From the NCBI RefSeq assembly GCF_033153115.1, contig NW_026889821.1:2170001-2234000 (forward strand): a stretch of 64,000 nucleotides of DNA, given 5' to 3'. Positions within the stretch are counted from its first letter, which is position 1. Each line of letters opens with the position of its first letter. Below, one piece after another: positions 37,101 to 64,000 of the stretch. The stretch is from Saccostrea echinata (taxonomy: Eukaryota). A program made the position numbers and the translations under genes. The notes under the pieces are model-generated. The model did no database searches and was not told the origin of the DNA. It was given only the letters and a program-made list of their open reading frames with translations.

Positions 37101-37770
37101 TGGGTTCGCTCTGGTGTTAGGTTGTGTCTGGTCAGTACTGTATATGATCTATATAGCCCCACCCTAGCACCAGAACCCCTGACCCAGGGGCCATGAATTT
37201 CAAAATTATGGTAGAGTCACTCCTGCTCATTATAACTATGTATTCGACTTGTTTCAATAATACCCAGGAGTAGAGAAGAAGATTTTCAAAGAATTAATGC
37301 ATTTTCATTATATAATCAAAAGAGCCCCGCCCTAGCACCAGAACCCCTGACCCAGGGGCCATGAATTTCACAATTTTGGTAGAGTCACTCTTGCTTATCA
37401 TAACTATGTATTCAATTTGTTTCAATAATACCCAGGAGTAGAGAAGATGATTTTCAAATAATTAATGCATTTTCATTATATAATCAAAAGAGCCCCGCCC
37501 TAGCACCAGAACCCCTGACCCAGGGGCCATGAATTTCACAATTTTGGTAGAGTCACTCTTGCTTATCATAACTATGTATTCAATTTGTTTCAATAATACC
37601 CAGGGGTAGAGAAGATGATTTTCAAAGAAATAATGCACTTTCACTATATGATCTATATAGCCCCACCCTAACACCAGAACCCCTGACCCTGGGGCCATGA
37701 ATTTCACAATTTTGGTAGAGTCACCCTTGCTCATCATAACTATGTATTCAATTTGTTTCAATAATACCCA

Positions 37771-37805
<35 letters not shown>

Positions 37806-38167
37806 CTTTCACTATATGATCTATATAGCCCCGCCCTAGCACCAAAACCCCTGACCCAGGGGCCATGAATTTCACAATTTTGGTAGACGGCTCAATGCTT
37901 ATTACAATCATGCCAACAGTTTGACTGCTTGATGTCCAGGAGTAAAGAAGAAGATTTTTAAAGATTGCATTAATTTTGATGGTTTTGGCCCCACCCCTCA
38001 GGCCCCAGGGGGGCAGGGGCCACGAATTTCGAAATTTTTGTTCCCCTTCACCCATAGATGCTATATGCCAAAATTGGTTGAAATTGGTTCACTGGTTCCA
38101 GAGAAGAAGCTGAAAATGTTCAAAAGTTTACGACCGACGCACGACACACGACGACGGACGAAAAGAG

Positions 38168-50339: not shown

Positions 50340-51335
50340 AAAAACAATACAAATCTGTGAACAGGACATAAAACTCGGATCTCCAGAAATTCAAGATGTG
50401 GGCTCAGGTGTCTAAGAAGAACTAAGCATCCCCTGTGGACCGGACAAACCACCCGTGTACCGTATGTATTGATCAGGTTGACGGAATGTTATAAAAAATG
50501 TCTGTGAAAATACGACCAATGGTACATGGAACAAGGTCATTATAATTTATGAAATGCTGACTTATTGAAATCCCTGTAATATTAAGCTGTCAGTACCCTG
50601 CCTCGATTTAAGATTTACTTTGATCGAACTAAGAGCATGCTCTTGAGTATCTCATAACTGTAAGTTGGGAGACATAAACACAATATGCAAGTGTTAGCAG
50701 ATTATTAACACAAGCATAAGTAAATTGGTCGATGGAATAGCTGAAAATTAAACATCTCGTTTGTCATACATGTACCATTTTGTTTTTATTTGTCCCTTAT
50801 CATCATTTGGAGGTCAAACATCCAATTAAGAAACGGATGTGAGAGACTTTCAGGTGTCCTTTTGATATATGAACGGAAGTAACTTGTTAATTGAAAAAAC
50901 GTCGTCGATATATCAGAATGTCGATTTGAAGGCTACAAAAATGTATTCTCCCTGTCATGTGAAAATATTTTAATAAATTCTGCTTCATTGGCATTTTTAG
51001 AACAAGTCGGCTTCTAAAGTAGCACAGTAAATGTCAATCGCAATTCCAACAGTTTGCTGGAAGACTTGGTCTCCAAAGACTACATAGATCTTGTCAATGA
51101 GGAACTCCAGCATCTTCTGAATATCATATTTAGAGTACTTACCTGTGTAGAATGAACGCACAATAATTTTTTACAAAGTAATTTTGTTGATGATCCATCA
51201 CAAGATACGAAAAACCCGAGTACCATTTTTATCGAAGAAACAAGTCTATGATATCAGAATTTAAGCCTAGTTTTCAATTTATCGTGGGGAATGATTGTAT
51301 GAAGTGTAGGAAAGTTATATGTTTTGATGTTGCTG
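50340..51335 (-). mobile_element. Decayed Penelope-like retroelement (RT fragment plus 3' tail)
   Basis: The minus strand near 51110-51020 reads MLEFLIDKIYVVFGDQVFQQTVGIAIDIYCA (cf. QxxGIPMGTNCAP). Collinear with the 62608-63211 copy, with many frame breaks. Confidence 0.75.
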
Positions 51336-51747
51336 ACTTTTGAAAAAAAAAAATGTTAATTTGAGTTTTTAAAACTTGTTTTAATTTGATTTGTATATCT
51401 TCTGAAATGTGCTGTAGCACAGTATGTCTAACGTTTCTCTTTTACAGCAGTTAATATTTTTAGGAGGAAATGACAACAATGGAATATATAACGTACAATA
51501 ATACCGTCTGAACGTTCTTTTGAAATAGTTTAGTAGCTTAAATGAGCTTCGTTCGTGCTTGGATAACTTTTACCAACAGTTTAATAATAAGGTAACTTTT
51601 TCTAACTTTTGTACATGTTCAAAATCTCTTTACTTTCTTCGTCCTTATTTTTGTCACAATCTCCAAAAAACAATCCCGAGCTCAGTTGCCATAGAACATA
51701 CATTAGTTTATCAAATTTAATTTAGGGAACAACAAATTAAATAAAAT

Positions 51748-54700
51748 TTATCTCAATATGCCATTGACTGTCAATCGTATATGTGCGATGATGAGAAGAA
51801 AAATAACACATCCTAGGATTATTATAAAAATTATTAAAATTTTTCTAACGATTTTGCTTTCTAATGATACCGTTTTAGTTGTTTTTACAGTTAATTCATG
51901 TGTATATGTTACTGTATTGTCTGTTAGACTCAAGGCTTGTATTAAAATACTGGGTCTAGATGACATATTGAAATTTGATTTGCTATCATTTTCATTTGCT
52001 GTTGCATTAATATTCTTGTCTGTAAGATTATCTGGAAGAGGAAAATGTAAAACAAAAATACTTCAGTTGATAGTAAAATACAATAATTTTAAAACATCCA
52101 ATTAAGATCGGTGCTTTTATAAAACTTAATTCAACAAATAGTATTGAAGAATGGTTTAAAATTACTAGTACTTGTCTATCTTTTTAAACTAAAAATATTC
52201 ATTTACCTAAGTTATGAGTAGTTGTTCTTGTACAACCATACTGAAAGTTGCAATACTTCCTCAAACACCAGCATCGATTTTGACATTCTTTTCCGTATGA
52301 TGGGTATGGACAGGAATCATTGCATTTCAAGCCATAAAACCCGATACTGCAAGCTGGGAATATAGAAAAGTTTTACACAGCTAGTTGTGCCACGTACGTG
52401 TAACATATGGTAGCACATACCATATGTTACACGTATATGAAACATAGGTAACACATACGTGTATTCCAACCGCACGTTACACGTACGTGGTACAACGTAT
52501 GGATGACATGCGTGTGACAACATACGTTTCACATAACGTACGTGAAACGTGCAGTTGGAATACACGTATGTGTTACGTACGTTTCACGTACGTGTAACAT
52601 ATGGTATGTGCTACCACACGTTACACGTACGTTTATAAACGCATGGTTTACATGTGTATTGTCAACCACAAGTTAAACGTACGTTAATGAACGTGTGGTT
52701 TACATATGTATTGTCAACCATACGTTACACATACGTTAATAAACACATGGTTTATATGTGTATTATAAAGCATACATTAAACATATTTCACACACATGGT
52801 TTACATTTATTATCAACCACACGTTACATATACGTTAATATATGCATGGTTTACATGTATTATAAACCACACATTACATGTACGTTAATGACAAGTATGA
52901 GTATTATCAGGTACCTTACATGTATGTTAATAAAAATTGTTTTACATGTGTGTGAAAAGTGTTTGAGGAGGCTGTATATTTTCTATATTAATGGTACTTT
53001 TACATACATGTACAATAAATGTAGGTCAACTATAATTAAATTCAATCCTTTTTATTTTTTTTTTTTTATTTCAATTTCGTTTAATTAATTAGTAAAACTA
53101 TTATCTAATTTTAGTCAATAAGTGAAAAAAATCCCTAAAAGTTTTATTGTAGCTGAGACTATAATATTTTTAAATTGGTGACATTTTCAAATACAGGAAC
53201 TTTTTGTACAAAAGTACTCAGACCAAATACTTTTTTTTTTACTTAAAAGTTCAAAGTGAATTTGGAGAACTAATCAAGATAATGTTTAACAATCAATAAC
53301 CTGTAAATGTGTAATTCATGAAACAGAGTATTGCGACCAACTTGGTCTAAGTATAAAATCCCTCTTAAAGACGGGACTCTAGATCATGAGTTGCATGGAT
53401 TTTAATCATTATACTGTAATATGTTTTAAAGATTCAACTATTTTTTTTTCAAAAAAATAATATCATATCATGATCAATGATTAAAACCCAATCACCTCTG
53501 AAAGCTAACAGGTGTATGCGTTGTTGACTTGTTGTGCGTGTTTTGCGTCTTTAATGTTCCAATTTATTTCACATTGTTTACCTTACGTCCACTTGCATGT
53601 CTGACATGGAGTAATCAGTTCGCATTGGTGTATAGTTTACTCTTAGAGCGGTAAAACATAGTCTACATATTCTTGACAAGCAATCAAAAACAATACCAAT
53701 CATTTAAAAAAAACACACACATTATCAAATGTTCTTTGCATATTTACAACTACAAGTACACCAATCTCGTAATGTGTATATCGGATATCGGTAGAGGAAC
53801 ATAAAATTCAACTTGATCATCGGTAAATATAATCATTCCGAATTCAGGAGCAAAAGGTGAATTTAAAAAAAGAAAAGAAAATCACGATAACTTCACTACA
53901 AAACACATATGGAATTCATCTAAATAGATATTAGATAATTATACAGTAGGTAGCGTCCGTATAACACTAAAATATGTAAAATATACGTTCCGGAATTTTC
54001 ACCTCCAATTATTATTTACGTTACGGGTGACGTCACTGGTAAGAAGTCTGACGTCTGCAAGACAGTGTCTTGAGTTAGGCTAGGATAACGGTGAGGAATA
54101 TATAACATCAACAGTTATTTAATCATGTTAATTACTTTATATTTCAGACTGTGTTGCATGTAAACTAACGGGCGTGTTTCTTTTATTTTAGTGCATAACG
54201 TAATGTAAACTAAGTAAGAAAATATTGACGCAGTCAGCTGTCTTGGTCAGCACCCCAGCCCAGGTGTGAATCAACACTGGCACATTATATCAAAATTCAG
54301 GTGAGGTTTAAAACATACTGTTATAAAAAATATTTATTGTAACTGATTTTTTTTAGCCTACCAATAAGATGCAAATAAAACCCTTAATGGAAAAAGTTCC
54401 AGCCACCCAATGTATTTCTTTCCAAAACATGTAGAGGAAATATAAATTATCTTTTAGGGCAATTAGGGTGTAACACTTATTTTTCAGATGTCTTTTTCAT
54501 ACAGTCCTTATGAATATAATTAATGTATTTTAATGAGATTGTGATTTTTTTATGTGATTTTAAATGTACACTCCAGGATGGTGGCTGAAGCTCTGACATC
54601 TCCTAGATGTAAACACCTAAATGCCAAGTCTGGACTTCAAAAACAGATTCTGAAAGTTTAACCAGAATTAAGGTAATACTCTTTAATAAGAAATCAGATT

Positions 54701-55289
54701 TTCTGATCCCATTGCTTTTAGACTTGCAATTACATATATATCATGTAATGATGTGCATTACATTTCAATCACAAGAGGAGAAAATGTTAAATGTTATCAG
54801 TAAAATAAGTAATTTTTCATTTTGTTCGTTTTGCTTTACAAGTCTGAAATGCATTTTTTTTTACCTCAAGGACAAAATGTATACTCTTCGAACAGACACA
54901 AAAACATATAGGTCCATGCCAAGCTATGAAAGATTTATGCTGAGGGTAAGTTCTATTATCTAGATCTATTATATAGAATTTAATTGTCAGACATATGGTT
55001 ATGTCTAAAATTTTACTGTTGTATTTATATTTGTGATAAGCAATATTTGCACCTGAGCTGACTTACATGTAATCACAATTTTTTTTTTAACTAATTAGGT
55101 AACCTGAGTCAGTCATGACCTATTGCTATCTGTTTTTAGCTCACCTGAGCTGAAAGTTCAGGTGAGCTTTTCTGATCACATTTTGTCTGTAGTTTGTCTG
55201 TCTAGCTGTCCGTCTGTCTGTAAACTTTTCACATTTTCGACTTCTTCTCCAGAACCACTGGCCTTATTTCAACCAAACTTGCCACAAAC

Positions 55290-55320
<31 letters not shown>

Positions 55321-58300
55321 TAAATAAGGGGCCACACCCTCATTAAAGGGGAGATAATTAAGACAGAGTGAAAATTTAGTGGGATGTTTTAAAAATCTTC
55401 TTCTCAAGAACCACTGGGCCAAAAAAAGTTGAAATTTATAGGAAACCTTGTATGTCAAAGTGTAAATTCAAATTTGTTTAAATCATGAGCACCGGGGGTA
55501 GGTTGGGGCCACGATGGGGGATCAAAATTTTACATAGGAATATATAAGAAAAAATCTTTAAAAATCTTCTTCTCAAGAACAACAAAGACTTGTTTCGTCA
55601 TATTGATAAGGAAGCAGGTAGTGTAGATTCAAGTTTGTTTAAATCATGACCCCCAGGGGTAGGGAGGGGCCACAATGGGGGATCAATATCTTACAAAGGA
55701 AAAAACTTTAAAATTCTTCTTCTCAAGAATAGCAAAGCCATGAATAGTCATTTTGAAATGGAAGCATCCTCAGGTTGTGTAGATTCAAGTTTGTTGAAAT
55801 CATGATCCCCTTGGGATCCCCTTGGGATAGGGTTGGACAATAATGGGGGATCAAAGTTTTACATAGGAATATATAGGAAAAAATCATCTTCTCAAGAACA
55901 GAAAAGCCCCGATTAGTCATGTTTATATGAAAGCATCATCAGGTAGTGAAGATTCAATTTTGTTCAAATCATGAACCCCTGGGGTAGGGAGGGGCCACAA
56001 CTGGGGATCGAGTTTTTATCGCATAAATTAATAAAGCATCTGTAGTTGAATCAAAACAAAAATAGTGAATTTTATGGTCCCTGCTCCCCCTGGGGCCTAA
56101 GGGATGGAGCTAAAACCATCAAAATTAATGCAATTTCTTTAAACCTGGACATCAAGCAAACTGTTAGCATGATTGTAATGAGCATTGAGTCTTCTATTAA
56201 AATTATGAAATTCATGGCCCCAGGGAAATTTAAGTGATTCAGGTGTTAGGGTGGGGCTTCATTGATCAAATAGTATTATTATGTATCGATTCATTGAAAA
56301 TCTATATAATGCTCCTCCTGAGTTTAAAGCAAACAAACTAAGTTCATAACTATGATGAACAAGTTTTATTTTCTGAGTTCACTCGCAATACTTCAATTTT
56401 AAATTTGTCAAGTAGAGATCGAATTATAAGGTAGATACTTGAGGATTGTGAAAAGTCTAGTTTAAATGACCAAGGTTATTAATACTAAAAAAAAAAATAG
56501 TTATTTGACTCTATATTTTAGTTCTATAGGGAATCAACCAGGAGTTATATGTGAAAAATAATATTGATCAAAAAATTGTTTTTCCTTATGAAAGTTCATT
56601 TAATATTTTCTTTTTCTTTACAGATTAAAGAGAATTGCAGAAGAATAGATTGATGTTAAAAAAATTCAACATTAAATTTGGCTTAGATTTGAATATGTCT
56701 TTTGTTGTGATTGAGTTTGAGAGCAATAAGGATCAGGAAATTAGAGGTGAAGGATATCCAGATATGTACCTTCAAAATGTGGATCATTCAACAGATGAAA
56801 AGAAAATGAGCCTTTGAAGAAAATTATGTCAAATGCATGAATTGAATCATTTTTGTTTCACCTTTGTTTACAGTACTGTGACAGAAAATGTTCAATGTAT
56901 GGTACATGCACATTTATCATATGAGCAGTTCATTTAACAAACGCGATAAAAGCATGTTTCTCAAAACATGCGTTACACACACATTGCACACATACGTTAT
57001 TCACACGTGAACCGTATGAATAACGTACGTGTGCAACGTGTGTGTAACGTATGGTAGTCAATACGTATGTTTAATGTACGTGTCACGCATGATATTCATA
57101 CGTGTGAAAACGTACGTTTAACGTACGTTTAACGTACGTTGTGCTTTTTTCATGTGATACGTACGTGAAGTCACATACGTTTAACGTACGTGATACGTAC
57201 TTGGCACATTTTGCTGTGTAGTTTATTTAAAGATTTAAGAATTCTTTTTTTTTTCATTTGAAGAATTGTAAAAGGTTTCAGTGGAACGTCATACGTAAAA
57301 CATCATTGCTCACATGCATGATCATAACATTTAAATGTAGAAATGTTTTCTGATCAAATCATTAAATGAACTCGTGCAATTTTCATGGTATGAATATAGT
57401 AATAGATATTCACTGATATTTCTCTTCGGAACCATTGATTTATTGAACTAGATGTATTGACTTTGCTGTAATATAAACTCATCTACTGGTAAATCCGCCA
57501 TGTTACTAGTAATGGTCTCACAGTGTCAGTTAATACTTAAACTGACAGGAAAAGTTTTAATGAAGGGTATGGCTATACTCCTATACTTGCATTTTGGTCA
57601 GACTTCCTGTATCTGAATACGTTTTGACTGTGAATAGTACAGTACAGCTCACGAGTATCTTCCGGAAAACACCGGCCACGGTGGACCCTTGGTCCACGCT
57701 TTTGCGTGGACTTTGAAAAATGTCGGTGTCTTTGATGTTTCGTTTTCAGCGCTGAGCTGGCACACGGTGCGACACGGTGTGTACACGGTGGGACACGGTG
57801 CGTTTCCTCCGTGGAACTCCTTGCTGGTTAATCAACGTTAAGTGGTTTGAAATTACTTTAAAATAATTCATTAAAGATTTTAGAATAAAAATCATTGAAA
57901 TGCATATCATCCGCAGCGTACATTTTTCTACTTTCGATATTGTACTGACGTGTCAATGAATTTAACAAAGACGGAATTTTACCAAGCAGTCAGCAATTTT
58001 GTGTTATTTGGAAGATATCTTCTTAAAGATTATTTTGTTTGTAAAACAAAAGCTAAATCTAAATTTAAAAAAAAATAAGAAAGGAATATTTTGCATTTGT
58101 ACTATGCTCAGGAAATCCATGTGGAATTGTCAATTGATTATCTTATCCGACGTACTTTTTTTTAATTATTAATAAAATTATTACTGTAGAAACTGGTGTA
58201 TATGTAAATAATTACTACATCAAAATACGACACAGAAAATATATTGTTTAATTTAATTTGAATCGGATGAAAAAAAATAGCTATGAAAAGATTGACTTAA

Positions 58301-59701
58301 ATTTCCGTCCCGTAATGGAACCCATATTGAGATGAGACCCGATGTAGTCTCTGTGTAATGAGTAAATCTCTGCCCAGCCCATCAGAAAATATGAAATGTT
58401 GATATTCAGGTATTGAAGATGCCCCACTTTTTCATCTGTGTCTGTTTGTAATTGTTCAGAATTATGTTTAAAATATAAACCTTAATATTTACCTTGCATT
58501 TTGTGTACAGATCGAAGCATTATGGGCACAACATTTTTCACAAAACTTGTCGCCAAGAATAATCACAATATGTAAACGATAAGATGTAAAACGTTATAAT
58601 TATGCCCAACAATATTGTCAATGACGTCGATAATGGAAAAAATTTCTAATGATACTATTCAAAAAATGATATTTCTGCAACATGTTCTATGTTAAACAAT
58701 GCTGTAAAAAGCCAAACAGTTTTCTTCCGTAACGTGTATGAAAAAAAAGTCTATAATTGTTAATAGGTTCACTGCCTAACTAGGCATATGCATAGGAGAT
58801 ATGAAAAACTAGATTGAAGATTTTATATTTTACTAGTACCTAGCGGAGATTTTTCAAACCATTAAATAAAAGCAAGCATACTGTATATGTGCTCTCCCTA
58901 CATGTAATAACAGCTCCCCTTTCCATAATGAGTTTTATGGATAATTTCTACACGGACATGTTAAAAAAAGAACAATATTTACATATGCCTATTTATTGTA
59001 TTACCTGTCCTTTTTAAGGATTTATTCTAATCCTTTTCAAAAATAGCATTTTAATGATAAATAAAATCAACGAAAGAGAGACAATTTTACGACATGGCGA
59101 GTTATGATTTCTTTTTTCTTCATTTCACCAGTAAGTTATGTTACAGTATATAACGACTTTATATAATCTAGATACAGTTGAATAATATTCGAATAATATT
59201 CGTTTGTAACTGTAACTTGTTTTTTAAAAATATGTTGCTGTACTAAAAATTCTATAAACAATAAAAATAAATACTAGTAGTTGTTTATTTTTCAAGTTCC
59301 AATTAACTTCCCGACACGTGTTAGTTTCGAAGCCAGTTGAGGTGTATAGTATACACTCGTCTAGAGTTTCAACATGTGAATAATGTCCCAAGGGCCACAG
59401 CTACTGAATGTCCCAATATATTTTTCTTCTGAACAGGTGTGAAATATATTAGCCAAGGAGCGACTCCATAAATACACGAGAAGTTTCTGCAATTCATCGA
59501 TATCCGGTATTTGATTGACAGGTAGAGCACGTGGATTCCTTGTGTGATGCGTTGAACTTGTATCTAAATTGCACCGATTCTATTTCGTTTCGATTAATAA
59601 AAACTGGAGGTGAACTATGATTTCTTAAACAAAAATAAGAGAGATACATTATATGTATATGAGAGAAAGAAAAAAAAGAACAGAAGTATGAACCTGAAAG
59701 T

Positions 59702-59750
<49 letters not shown>

Positions 59751-61032
59751 TCTTAACATTGTAAAATATGGAATTCAAAATAATTTTTAATTATTACGAA
59801 AAAAGTGAATAGTATATAATTTGTAAAAGAACTTTTAGAATGCTGCATTGGCAGTTCAAGCGATTTTTTTACTTTTCGTACTGATCGTAGAAGATTTAAG
59901 TAGTAAAAAAAAAAAATACCCAGATAGAAATACTGAAACTTTACATATTCGACAGAAATAAATGTTCAAACATTGAATTTTTTTACATTTATGTCTCTTA
60001 ATGTCAAGTTTAATCAATGGATGCATACAACTGCTTGAATTTCATGTGAATTTGCCGATTGTACGACTACCAAACTGCGTATAAGATTTTTTAGTGAATG
60101 CTACGTGTTTTGCTTTTTTTTTTTCTTGCATGTACATGTACTTTTTCTTCCTCAGATGTAGCAACTTAGTATCTTCATTGATAAGTGGTCTACACTTTTT
60201 ATTTTATTTCTGCAAAATAAGACTTTATTCATATACCATATGAATATCATAATATACTGACTCGACATTTTTTTTCACTATTATTATTTACGATGTAGTG
60301 ATCAGATGATGCTAAATTAATTATCTGATATCATAGGTATTATTTGTAAATGCCTTTACTCTCAATACCTTTAATACCATATTATTTCACAGGGAAAATA
60401 ACAACTAAAATTATCGATCCGTATCTATGTTTCACACTGAATAATTATTAAGTTCAAAGACAATGTACCTGTACTTGGATTTGTACCTGCGCACTTATAG
60501 CATACGTCAGAAATATATTAATTTGCACAATCGACATGTAGTTATTTTTGTTTTCAATTGAATATGAAATATGAATTCAACAGAAATCAAAATAAATTTA
60601 TTCAATTGATATAATTATACATGTATACCGTCAACGGTGAACCAAAGTCTACACATGTATGATAGTGAGCAGTTTGAATTAAATAATTTTTCATTTACTA
60701 TTTCTTTCTAGCAATTAAACCAACATACCTATAATTTCAATTCTAAAATTATTTTTATAAACAAACCATTTCCTTCCGTAATTTTCTTGCACGGTGGAAC
60801 ACGGAGGGTCACCCGATGAAACGGTAATGTCCACGGTGTGACACGGTGCGTCTTTGGTGTAATCGCAATATACGCACACGGTGGAACTCCGTGTACACGG
60901 TGTAACACGGGGTATTTTCCACCGTGTGTTTTCCACGGTGGGGTGGAAGAAACTCGTGAGCTGTACTGTATATGTGTACGTATCCAAAAATAAATAAATT
61001 GATAAAATGAAATAAAATAAAATAAAAATATT

Positions 61033-61085
<53 letters not shown>

Positions 61086-63908
61086 CCTAGGGTAACTATG
61101 AACATTAAGGTCGTTTAATGCAATCGCAAATTAAACGCATTTAATTGATTTCCGAAAAACGCAGGGGGTAGGTCCTTTGACACTTTCCCCCGATTGCCGC
61201 GAGTATAAAAGAGGGGCGCACGTGGCGAATTCCTCCTCTTACTCAATAGCTACTCCAGCGTTCTGCACTTGTGATAATTGTTTCCCACCTACCACTCCCA
61301 CTTAAGAGAAATAAATCTTAGTTGTTGATAGATTGTAAGTTTAACATGTTTAGAATTGGGCCTGCTGCTGTTTCTGCTGTTTATTTTATTTTTCAGGTTA
61401 CGTTTATCTATGAACCTCTTTTATGTTTATGTGCACAAGATTGTGATCTACTTGCAATGGGACTGAAGACTGAAGATATGTTGCTGTCGCGGCTTTACGG
61501 ATGTGTCAGACAAGCAGAGACATTAGTCATCATTATATTATTGTTTATGTTTTATTATCTATTTTACATGCTTGGTAGAGCATGTGGTGGCTCGCTAAGG
61601 CTACCCTAGGATCCAATAGAAGCTTGCTATGGAGTGCACTGGGAGCTTGTGTGAGGGATCTGTTTGGTATAACAGTAACCTCGTACCCCGTTCGGTATAA
61701 CGGGTGGATTTATTTTGCCCTACTCAGTATAGTGGGCTTACCTGTTCGGTATAACAGGTAGTAGCCTCGCTAAGGAATCCCCTAGGAGGCAATTACATTG
61801 ATATCCCAGCTGACTCGCTAAGGGGTACCCTAGGAGTCGATTAATACATATTGTTACGCCTTGCTATGGATTACCCTAGAAGGCGAGGTGCCATAACGCC
61901 CGTTACCAATTTAGGTGTGTGGTACCCAATGATGGTTAAATGCTTGTCTGACATTTGTCATTGAAACAATTATTAAAGCTGTAGCCTTTTATCATCCAAA
62001 AACATGTTTTGTTATTTTTTCGGAAAAATATTCTATTAATCGGATTTACCCTCGAAATTGCTTTCTAATGGCTCCATTTTGTCCGTTTTCACGGTATATA
62101 CATTTGTATATGTTATTTCATTGGCTGTGAAACGAGGAGTTTGTCTGGAAATATTGGGTAGATGTACAAATATATTGATATTTGACTTGTCATGTAATGA
62201 TCTTGTATTACTTTTCCTGTTTGTCAGATAATCTGAAAAAAGAAAATAATTAAAATAATTTTGTATCTAAGTTGAATAAAATTATCAAAGCGTCAAATTA
62301 AAATCAAATTGAGATCAGTGCATGCTTTAAAAAAAAAAAAAAATTATAAAAAAAAAAATGAAGGGTTATTCAAATTTTAACACTGAATGTCTATCCTTTA
62401 CACTTCAACGTATTTATTTACCTAAGTTATGAATAGTTGTTCCTATACAACCATACTGAAAGTTACAATACTTCCTCAAACACCAACATCGATTTTGACA
62501 CTGTTTTCCGTATGATGGGTATGGACAGGAATCATTGCATTTCAAGCCATAAAACCCGATACTGCAAACTGGGAATATAGAAAAGTTTTAGTTTACTTAA
62601 AGATTTATGTGAAATATATGGAGATAACGAACAGTATTCAACAAAAGTCCACCAAACAATTCAAAATAGGAGCAGAGCAAACATGGACCTCCAAAACATC
62701 AGAGGGATCAGGTGCCATGGAGGAGTGAGCATCCCCTGCCGACCGGTCACACCCGCGGTGTGCTCCTTGTCATGATCGGGAAACAATGGAAAAAATCCGT
62801 CGACAATCCAGTGTGTAAATAATGGCCTCACAATTAGTATGAAAAACGTCAGTCAGCATTTGACTCAATGATAAATTGTATTTGCTGACAAGGTCATTGT
62901 ATCGACCATAGAATTTACGAAATGATGACTTTAAACGAGACTGCTGATATTCTTGTTTCATCAACTTGTTTGTCAATAATTTACCTCGTTTTAGAAATTG
63001 TACATACTTAAAGCATGCTCTTGCGCATCGAATCAACTGAGAGATATAAACCCCGTATGCAGGCGACGAAGGTATATTGCTCCATAAGTAAGGGATGTTG
63101 ACGATTGAAAAGTTAAATTCATAACGTTTATCATAAAGCTTGGTTGTTAGATTACCATTACTGTCTTTTTCAAGTAAAATATCCAAATATGAAACAGATG
63201 TGTCAGACTCTGAATTCTTTTTTTCTTTTGAATAATTGTGAAAGGTTTCAGTGGAACATCATAAAACATCATTGTTCACATGCATGGTCATAAGATTTAA
63301 GTGTAGAAATGTTTTCTGATCAAATCATTAAATGTACTCGTGCAATTTTAATATAATATAATAATAGGAATCTATTGGAATTTCTCTTCGGAACCATTGA
63401 TTAATTGAACGGGATGTATTGATTTCTTGTCATGTAAACACATCTACTGTTAAATTCGCGATGTTACTAGTAATGGTCTCACAGTGTCAGTTGATACTTT
63501 AATTGGAAGGAAAAGTTTTAAGAAGGGTATTGCTATACTCCTCTACTTGCATTTCGATTAGATTTCCTGTATCTCAATACAGGACTGCCAATAGTATATG
63601 TGTACGTATATATATATATATATATATAAAATAAATAAACAAAGAAAAAAAAAGAAAGAAAATTAAGGTATTTAAAAAAAATGTAACACATCCTAGGATA
63701 ATCATGAACATTAATAGGATTTTACCTTCAAATTTGCCTATCAATGGTTCCATTTTGGTTGTTTTCACGGTAAATGCATTTGTATATGATTTTTCATTGG
63801 CTGTTAAACGATGAGTATGTCTGAAAATATTGGGTAGATGTACATTTCTGTTGACATTTGACTTGTTATGTCCTGATCTTGTATTACTTTTCCTGTCTAT
63901 CAGATAAT
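51748..63908 (-). CDS. Gene E (5'-partial): MEGF-like type I membrane protein with repeated EGF + stalk units
   Basis: Exons 63908-63726 (stalk, 183 nt), 62568-62422 (EGF, 147 nt), 62232-62050 (stalk, 183 nt), 52353-52207 (EGF, 147 nt), 52031-51748 (stalk + TM KILIIFIIILGCVIFLLIIAHI + stop). All junctions phase 1 and GT-AG. EGF exon: CSIGFYGLKCNDSCPYPSYGK.CQNRCWCLRKYCNFQYGC. Continues past the right edge. Confidence 0.75.
52376..57218. mobile_element. EnSpm/CACTA(CMC)-like non-autonomous element, 2-bp TA TSD, ACGT-rich subterminal repeats
   Basis: TA|CACAGCTAGTTGTGCCACGTACGT .. ACGTACTTGGCACATTTTGCTGTG|TA. The empty site AAAAGTTT-TA-GTTTACTTAAAGATTTA is in the paralogous intron at 62581-62607. 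Confidence 0.85.
55095..56360 (+). mobile_element. HINE/Helitron-N nested in a second HINE, inside the EnSpm-like element
   Basis: Two successive heads, TTAGGTAACCTGAGTC..GACCTATTGCTAT and TTTTAGCTCACCTGAGCTGAAAGTTCAGGTGAGC + (GTCT)n. ~170-bp units at 55440-56020, with the remainder of the outer family at 56050-56360. Confidence 0.75.
57640..60968. mobile_element. Non-autonomous TIR DNA transposon E3 (CAGTAC ends, TA TSD, CACGGTG subterminal arrays)
   Basis: TA|CAGTACAGCTCACGAGTATCTTCC .. GGAAGAAACTCGTGAGCTGTACTG|TA. Empty site AATAG-TA-TATGTGTACGTA at ~63590-63610. Confidence 0.9.
61109..62035 (+). mobile_element. ~930-bp insertion without TIRs, flanked by (A)TTAA; possibly DIRS/Ngaro-like remnant or solo LTR
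   Basis: Absent from the paralogous site GAACA-TTAA-TAGGAT (63706-63720). Contains TATAAAAGAGGGGCGCACG, CCCACCTACCACTCCCAC and internal repeats CTCGCTAAGG..CCCTAGGA (x4) and TTCGGTATAAC (x3). Confidence 0.6.
62608..63211 (-). mobile_element. 5'-truncated Penelope-like retroelement (RT C-terminal/thumb region, Naiad-like)
   Basis: ORF 62770-63186: LDILLEKDSNGNLTTKLYDKR..FNFSIVN.P..SNIPSSPAYGVYISQLIR.ARAC..LKSSFRKFYGRY. Absent from the paralogous intron (57221-57250 AAAGATTTA-AGAATTCTTT). Confidence 0.85.
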
Positions 63909-64000
63909 CTGAAAAAGGAAATTAATTCAAATAACTTTGTATCTAACTTGAATACAATTATCAAAGCGTCAAATTAAAATCAAATTAAGATCGGTGCTTT

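Follow-up and report, generated by a model that had tools for sequence, protein, structure and literature searches.

The window analysed here is a 64,000-nt stretch of Saccostrea echinata DNA (contig NW_026889821.1, hereafter C72, positions 2170001-2234000; 32% GC, in a genome of 923 Mb). Coordinates above 64000 continue the window numbering, and the contig position equals 2170000 plus the coordinate. The end of the window holds a receptor gene on the minus strand that is built of three head-to-tail units, each consisting of an EGF exon and a stalk/transmembrane (TM) exon (Table 1). We refer to the first-transcribed unit as unit 3, to the middle one as unit 2, and to the last, terminal one as unit 1. 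The first three exons (signal, EMI-like, and the EGF exon of unit 3) lie just beyond the window edge. A preliminary description of this stretch had recognized three tandem stalk copies and two EGF exons inside the window and had placed a third EGF exon past its edge, where we located it. It had also stated that no signal exon lies between the copies; our searches agree, as neither a signal nor an EMI-like exon was found between units and the lone exon of each kind lies upstream of all of them. A profile scan covering 52.4-88.2 kb detected only one EMI-like exon. Between the units there are six weaker phase-2 signal-like frames, without the family ending and without an EMI-like exon to join, and a signal-exon candidate with a GTG start at 74129 was discarded as lying inside a dispersed repeat with 54 matches.

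Table 1. Predicted exons, relics, and insertions of the receptor gene in order of transcription, followed by its sister genes
Feature	Coordinates	Strand	Remarks
Signal exon (predicted)	66380-66286	-	Single-copy ATG exon; 3' end resembles signal exons of paralogues
EMI-like exon (predicted)	64684-64626	-	Profile scan score 42.7, next best 22.3
EGF exon, unit 3 (predicted)	64237-64091	-	Outside the window; weak donor, score 4.5
3' part of intron ahead of unit-3 stalk	63909-64000	-	Gene continues past the window edge
Stalk exon, unit 3, to internal phase-1 donor	63726-63908	-	183 nt; donor 7.6, best GT in exon
Relic TM, tail, and old 3' UTR, unit 3	63215-63725	-	T-rich and TA expansion, frameshift near TM end
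Piece of high-copy dispersed repeat, 597 nt	62616-63212		Between units 3 and 2
EGF exon, unit 2	62422-62568	-	5' part shares states with unit 1, rest of unit with unit 3 (P = 0.0006)
Stalk exon, unit 2, to internal phase-1 donor	62050-62232	-	183 nt; donor 6.9, best GT in exon
931-nt insertion	61104-62034		TTAAT direct repeat; splits unit-2 relic TM 15 nt past the donor
Relic TM, unit 2	60971-61103	-	GT microsatellite, T-rich expansion
3.3-kb element (3331 nt)	57638-60970		26-nt terminal inverted repeats, TA target duplication
Relic tail and old 3' UTR, unit 2	57245-57639	-	85% identical to unit 3
4.85-kb element (4848 nt)	52374-57221		Inverted ends, TA target duplication; about 20 nt upstream of unit-1 acceptor
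EGF exon, unit 1	52207-52353	-	Eight cysteines kept
Terminal exon (stalk, intact TM, 11-residue tail, stop)	51748-52031	-	Stop at 51750-51748
Sister gene	C117:277129-263820		Signal exon, EMI-like exon, three EGF-plus-stalk units; intact-looking
Sister gene	C72:1695564-1680600		Signal exon, EMI-like exon, three EGF-plus-stalk units; intact-looking
Third sister, dead	C72:1815.8-1813.7 kb		Stops, lost cysteines, frameshifts, broken acceptor

With splicing predicted at 63726 and 62050, the eight exons join into an open frame for a type I protein of 414 aa, with 29 Cys, 9 NxS/T sites, and a single TM at residues 385-403. All eight exons are intact and have GT-AG ends. Each of the three EGF exons preserves its 8 cysteines, and stalks of 61 residues separate them in the model. 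The terminal TM is intact (KD19 3.65), and the tail that follows it contains no tyrosine.

The gene belongs to a clustered group of short receptors. Its neighbours (109.8-105, 90.8-88.2, and 17.5-16.1 kb) follow a plan of a signal exon, an EMI-like exon, one or two EGF exons, and a terminal stalk/TM/tail exon. The database models P0010 and P0011, which represent a close relative of the 17-kb gene, match this plan, and single-unit paralogues give the likely ancestral one. The nearest named short proteins are from oyster. The short oyster EGF receptors P0005, P0006, P0008, P0010, and P0011, labelled MEGF10/MEGF11/ced-1-like or uncharacterized, occur in tandem clusters, and our gene shares their features: a phase-2 signal exon ending near a Cys, a following 56-59-nt CCxG(F/Y)xW exon, 8-Cys EGF-type phase-1 exons (alignment A3), and a single exon with stalk, TM, and tail. 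MEGF10/Draper/CED-1 proper have about 15 or more tandem EGF repeats together with cytoplasmic NPxY and ITAM-like tyrosine motifs; the present gene, with three EGF exons and a tyrosine-free tail, departs from them on both counts. The EGF profile matches EGF stretches of 6u11_A (5.5e-9) and Tie2 (0.002), no Pfam family was reached at cut-off, and the stalk protein searches, one restricted to 164-2000 aa and another returning 0 hits, gave no database protein with these stalks. Among the papers listed by our literature search, none was specific to this oyster receptor family.

In units 3 and 2, a donor-like site lies just in front of the membrane anchor. The putative donors AAG/GTAAAA (63726) and AGG/GTAAAT (62050) are both in phase 1, and their GT dinucleotides (63725 and 62049) fall opposite coding sequence in the terminal copy, which reads A/GAAAAA without a GT at this place and continues into its TM, just as the preliminary description had it. 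Their scores (Table 1) come from a donor matrix built from 45 predicted paralogue donors, the median of which is 7.8. At the site is a juxtamembrane Gly-Lys codon pair (G/GT AAA), and the Gly-Lys donor may be older than the duplication. Upstream of the donor both inner stalks are open and indel-free, which bears out the clean frames noted earlier; downstream of it the old TM, tail, and 3' UTR have decayed. The microsatellites, the frameshift in copy 2, and the insertions of about 930 nt and 3.3 kb that had been listed as signs of this decay are all present. Unit 3 had been credited with an open hydrophobic tail, and its read-through is indeed open and hydrophobic to a stop ending at 63574 (KD19 2.47). 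Unit 2 carries a 1-nt deletion past the donor, and its read-through ends ..EGKSD before the stop. Both relics comprise a basic tail and then about 345 nt of old 3' UTR. Because units 3 and 2 have in common both the T-rich expansion and a changed frame at the end of the TM, the TM was likely released before these two units split, with the EGF exons still constrained. From unit 1, in turn, the old tail and 3' UTR still visible as relics in units 2 and 3 have been lost: similarity stops at its stop codon, and the old 3' UTR was found neither downstream of unit 1 nor elsewhere in the genome.

A genome search returned these three copies only. An assembly artefact can be eliminated as their source because the copies differ by 5-28% and have private insertions. 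With the insertions removed, the ancestral unit is about 1.07 kb, and the orientation was head to tail, since the ends of the relic tails match the sequence before the first (unit-3) EGF acceptor. The 22 nt ahead of the three EGF acceptors are near identical, and the EGF exons are 93-95% identical between units compared with 73-87% for the introns. Exchange between copies inflates this EGF identity. Unit 2 has a mixed affinity: the states of its acceptor and EGF exon run 8 vs 3 in favour of unit 1, and those of its intron and stalk 19 vs 79 in favour of unit 3, a pattern that unequal crossing-over or conversion within the EGF exon would produce. Copies 2 and 3 stem from one event, and the two donors therefore have one origin. 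The 597-nt repeat piece and the 4848-nt element with terminal inverted repeats now separate the units, and all four insertions (597, 931, 3331, and 4848 nt) came after unit duplication.

We then consider whether the duplicated units are maintained. The dN/dS of the EGF exons is 0.16, 0.10, and 0.28 in the three unit pairs (range 0.10-0.28), and the 5-6 synonymous vs 5 replacement events depart from neutrality (P = 0.008-0.024), so that, judged by substitution patterns, the EGF exons of all units are under purifying selection. The stalk residues are without visible constraint (dN/dS 0.8-1.0). A comparison of dN/dS before and after the donor, which the preliminary description had proposed as a check, does not discriminate for this reason; the contrast lies instead in indels and stops. 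Units 2 and 3 differ by 0 indels across the 183 nt before the donor and by 10 across 564 non-coding nt (P = 0.04). The reading frame is also preserved in the unit-1 stalk, whose protein alignment shows one gap of two residues and another of a single residue.

The same description had named as its refuting case that transcripts end in unit 3 and that units 2 and 1 are dead partial duplicates. Unit 3 alone would indeed encode, in an open frame, a 211-aa protein that ends in a hydrophobic stretch, and large insertions precede units 2 and 1. However, these two units show no stop, frameshift, or cysteine loss across 761 coding nt, and the simulated chance of remaining undamaged if dead is 0.013 for unit 2 and 0.0002 for unit 1 (0.014 for unit 3), as calculated with the gene's own non-coding rates in a simulation that ignores exchange between EGF copies, which did occur. 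Unit 1 also keeps an intact TM, which is covered by a contig of a probable RNA run, and what real decay looks like is visible in the dead sister. We consider this case very unlikely indeed. A related account is that the gene lengthened in the proposed way but that exon skipping is now removing units from it, or that it has recently died in this haplotype. It draws on the weak donor of the unit-3 EGF exon, the tail gone from unit 1, the large recent insertions, and the dead and weakened sisters nearby, but it has to be set against eight exons that are all intact with GT-AG ends, and we judge it improbable.

Two sister genes are informative here. A search with P0008 led to C117:274.8-276.3 kb, and the spliced models of the sisters on C117 and C72 both keep an open frame from the first EGF exon through to the stop; C117 could represent another haplotype of C72. 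In each sister, the inner stalks show homology to the terminal exon of that gene (shuffle P of at most 0.004). At the juxtamembrane position of the second stalk is a phase-1 donor with a TM relic behind it, and the first stalk has a phase-1 donor about 60 nt earlier than in the second, followed by a more decayed relic. Both inner donors are preserved in both sisters, with no indels before them and indels after. We note that one sister's inner donor scores just 3.7 on the matrix, that within the TM of the sisters' terminal exon there is a donor-like site scoring 6.9, and that in their first EGF exon pN is close to pS, so that constraint is not visible, with one EGF donor being GC.

The sisters also bear on an alternative in which a single 5' end splices to one of three EGF-plus-terminal modules and the inner donors are look-alikes that go unused. 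Units 3 and 1 would then each give a short membrane form, and unit 2 a secreted form (..EGKSD). The phase of the EMI-like donor fits each of the three EGF acceptors, the open, hydrophobic read-through of unit 3 is accompanied by ATTAAA hexamers at 63503 and 63352, and constrained EGF exons with open stalks would be expected from such an arrangement as well; unused donor-like sites do occur in terminal exons. Yet inner copies, here and in the sisters, have phase-1 donors far oftener than true terminal exons: a donor of at least 6.6 in at least one copy is found in 3/3 inner-stalk lineages compared with 2/20 terminal exons that have such a site in the stalk (P = 0.006), a cut-off that was set after the scores were seen, and lowering it to 6.2 gives 3/20 terminal exons (P = 0.011). 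The 20 terminal exons were called automatically, two of them doubtfully; one further row of the 21, for unit 3 of this gene, was omitted. Moreover, read-through in the sisters stops 9-22 codons past the donor, the context of their first-stalk donor is identical in both with indels behind it, and use of unit 1 alone requires the skipping of four intact exons. The choice among modules is thus unlikely in our view. The reading that we think likely, from the sequence comparisons above, is that this is one gene in which the last two exons are present three times and splicing before the anchor in the first two units would yield a single 414-residue receptor with the last anchor only. Lengthening of the ectodomain, as the preliminary description had proposed, is supported by the single 5' end, the open spliced model, purifying selection on the EGF exons, and the conserved inner donors of the sisters, with splicing at the inner donors predicted.

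The exons of this gene and those of the sisters cluster by gene (EGF exons 99/97, stalks 100/100), and the stalks of the two groups show no alignment beyond the TM. Because the sisters' EGF exons and stalks cluster apart from ours, the event probably occurred at least three times; on the simplest reading, the origins are probably independent, with a single donor gained in this gene and two gained in the sisters. Alternatively, the genes may share one origin and have since undergone conversion of whole units.

Four shallow contig sets that we guessed to be RNA, containing 5-23% of words, were compared with 50500-64000. None of the 15 joints listed of 579 is an exon junction; exon cover is thin in these sets, and repeats fill the tables. 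A 247-nt contig of run X1, also RNA by guess, covers 51706-51947 and ends about 10 nt past an ATTAAA, a weak hint of a used 3' end. Contigs over 57.6-62.0 kb were set aside as a sign of intron retention, being mostly in the inserted elements and different from this copy. Splicing at 63726 and 62050 is predicted from sequence, as are the short and soluble isoforms. Short forms of the receptor are possible by read-through, which in unit 3 would give the 211-aa protein and in unit 2 a 275-aa protein without a TM. Immunoglobulin mu has a composite last exon with an internal donor that separates a secreted from a membrane end. Like it, the oyster exon could end by read-through at a stop or be spliced to the next exon, but in immunoglobulin mu it is read-through that makes the secreted form and splicing that brings in the TM, whereas in the oyster gene the former TM follows the donor and splicing would add ectodomain.

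How other family members lengthen was surveyed in 732 kb around them, which contained 78 EGF exons and 34 consecutive EGF pairs without an intervening EMI-like exon. Five of the 34 pairs share downstream DNA. Two belong to this gene, two share an EGF exon, an intron, and the start of a short linker exon, and one is a 6.6-kb segment with two EGF exons in which no TM was found. A repeated stalk/TM exon was detected by DNA similarity in 0/32 other pairs, a lower bound in that 150/737 candidates were scored for regions and the sisters' stalks are too diverged for the test. Multi-EGF members elsewhere in the family lengthen by EGF exons alone, by EMI-plus-EGF pairs, or by an EGF exon with a short self-contained linker exon. 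The P0005-like genes repeat the last of these, the linker having its own donor, which is ordinary symmetric duplication; the inner linker of P0008 copies the start of its own terminal stalk, and P0001 has a weakly similar linker (P = 0.02). Unlike these members, the present gene and its sisters recycle the TM-bearing last exon.

Several known routes of intron gain can be compared with this one. The classical AGGT (Rogers) route takes both splice sites from a duplicated exonic AGGT and does not describe the oyster gene because the oyster acceptor is an inherited intron end. A closer parallel is the potato RdRp gene, in which an intron was gained by tandem duplication across an intron-exon boundary, as reported by Ma, Lan, and Niu (2016, PMC4974935). 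In potato, the duplicated segment ran from the 3' part of an intron into the exon after it. The acceptor of the new intron came from the parent, and its donor was a cryptic site in what had been exon in the upstream copy; coding sequence was added, and 10 nt of an internal exon became intron, as confirmed by 106 RNA-seq reads (PMC4974935). The oyster duplicate likewise spans an intron 3' end and the downstream exon, its acceptor is inherited from the parental intron, and at the sequence level its donor comes from formerly exonic sequence. It differs from the potato case in that the part predicted to be intronised is the TM, stop, and 3' UTR of a last exon, and in that the unit has two exons, was propagated to a third copy, and recurs in sisters. 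It also resembles the "imprecise" intron gain of PMC3443670, where latent splice sites of the duplicated region are used and coding sequence is changed; the relevant passages of that paper do not treat last exons or membrane anchors, and those of PMC3140891 do not bear on the oyster case. The mechanism class, tandem duplication across an intron-exon boundary, is known. Its use on a TM-bearing last exon, or repeatedly in one receptor subfamily, was not found in our literature search, which covered subscription papers thinly.

These comparisons suggest the following history. First, a segment of about 1.07 kb would have been duplicated in tandem; it comprised the EGF exon and the terminal stalk/TM exon together with about 345 nt of 3' UTR. 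The Gly-Lys pair of the upstream copy would then have acted as a phase-1 donor and been spliced to the acceptor that the following EGF exon had inherited, so that the old TM, stop, and UTR became intronic, and the intronised TM would have decayed. The middle unit may have been born next, by unequal crossing-over or conversion inside the EGF exon. Transposons would have filled the new introns, and the old tail would finally have been lost from the last copy. The likely outcome is a longer ectodomain with more glycosylation, in which three near-identical EGF modules are carried by an anchor with almost no tail; the three modules likely give more reach and avidity.

Domain gain in receptors is usually ascribed to the duplication of symmetric internal exons. 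A last exon that carries a TM, a stop, and a poly(A) site should block reading on into a duplicate, and our analysis indicates that one donor can remove the block; the sisters suggest that this removal occurred more than once. Such loci may be annotated as several partial genes. Since the copies are young and can be aligned base by base, they offer a test of how fast a last exon becomes internal and of whether splicing and read-through can coexist. More tentatively, and with the odds somewhat against it, duplication of the TM exon plus a new donor may be a repeated route to ectodomain length in this oyster subfamily, with at least three donor gains, in which young units still switch between splicing and read-through and so produce long and short membrane receptors and a soluble decoy. 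If this switching occurs, the fossil anchors, at graded stages of decay, would record the whole process.

The two sister genes share the three-unit plan of the main gene, an EGF receptor whose signal, EMI-like and first EGF exons lie past the edge of the window (see the table). The inner stalks of both sisters contain phase-1 donors at two differing positions, with TM relics after them. The dead sister copy has an EMI-like exon with a stop, lost cysteines, frameshifts and a broken acceptor, and a third unit was not found in this copy. The single-EGF paralogue shows close similarity to the database protein models P0010 and P0011, and the terminal exon of the 109.9-105 kb paralogue has an apparent frameshift here relative to its C117 relatives.

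Positions of genes, exons and repeats (coordinates above 64,000 continue the window numbering; G000, same assembly; L-numbers, DNA stretches taken from it)
Feature	Position	Strand
Signal exon, main gene, beyond window edge	66380-66286 (L001 4380-4286)	minus
EMI-like exon, main gene, beyond window edge	64684-64626 (L001 2684-2626)	minus
First EGF exon, main gene, beyond window edge	64237-64091 (L001 2237-2091)	minus
Element with terminal inverted repeats, TA-flanked	57638-60970	
Element with terminal inverted repeats, TA-flanked	52374-57221	
Tandem array, ~5 units of 168 nt	37141-37980	
Single-EGF paralogue, looks intact, long tail	17520-16140	minus
Paralogue with two EGF exons	90.8-88.2 kb (L003 8844-6212)	minus
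Paralogue with two EGF exons	109.9-105 kb (L005 7876-3000)	minus
Sister gene 1, three-unit plan	G000:C117:277129-263820 (L072, L076)	
Sister gene 2, three-unit plan	G000:C72:1695564-1680600 (L081, L082)	
Dead sister copy	G000:C72:1815800-1813700 (L086)	

The element at 52374-57221 has long, palindromic, ACGT-rich ends and a high-copy repeat nested at 55.1-56.4 kb; copies related to the 168-nt array occur at 34.6-35.0 and 56.0-56.4 kb.

Genes with the exon order EMI-EGF-EMI-EGF, in three such motif runs (G000:C3:12384001-12444000, L058-L063), belong to the same family as the main gene but represent another kind of internal duplication. In two genes on G000:C52 (9.495 and 9.521 Mb; L016, L065), the duplicate takes in an EGF exon with its intron and reaches into the beginning of the linker exon that follows. 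The copied linker-exon start remains without a donor, and in one of the two genes both acceptor and donor are gone from the second EGF exon.

The Crassostrea virginica model P0008 contains two nearly identical EGF modules, and residues 1-19 of its terminal stalk are copied in the inner linker. This may be the mechanism proposed for the main gene, at work in another oyster.
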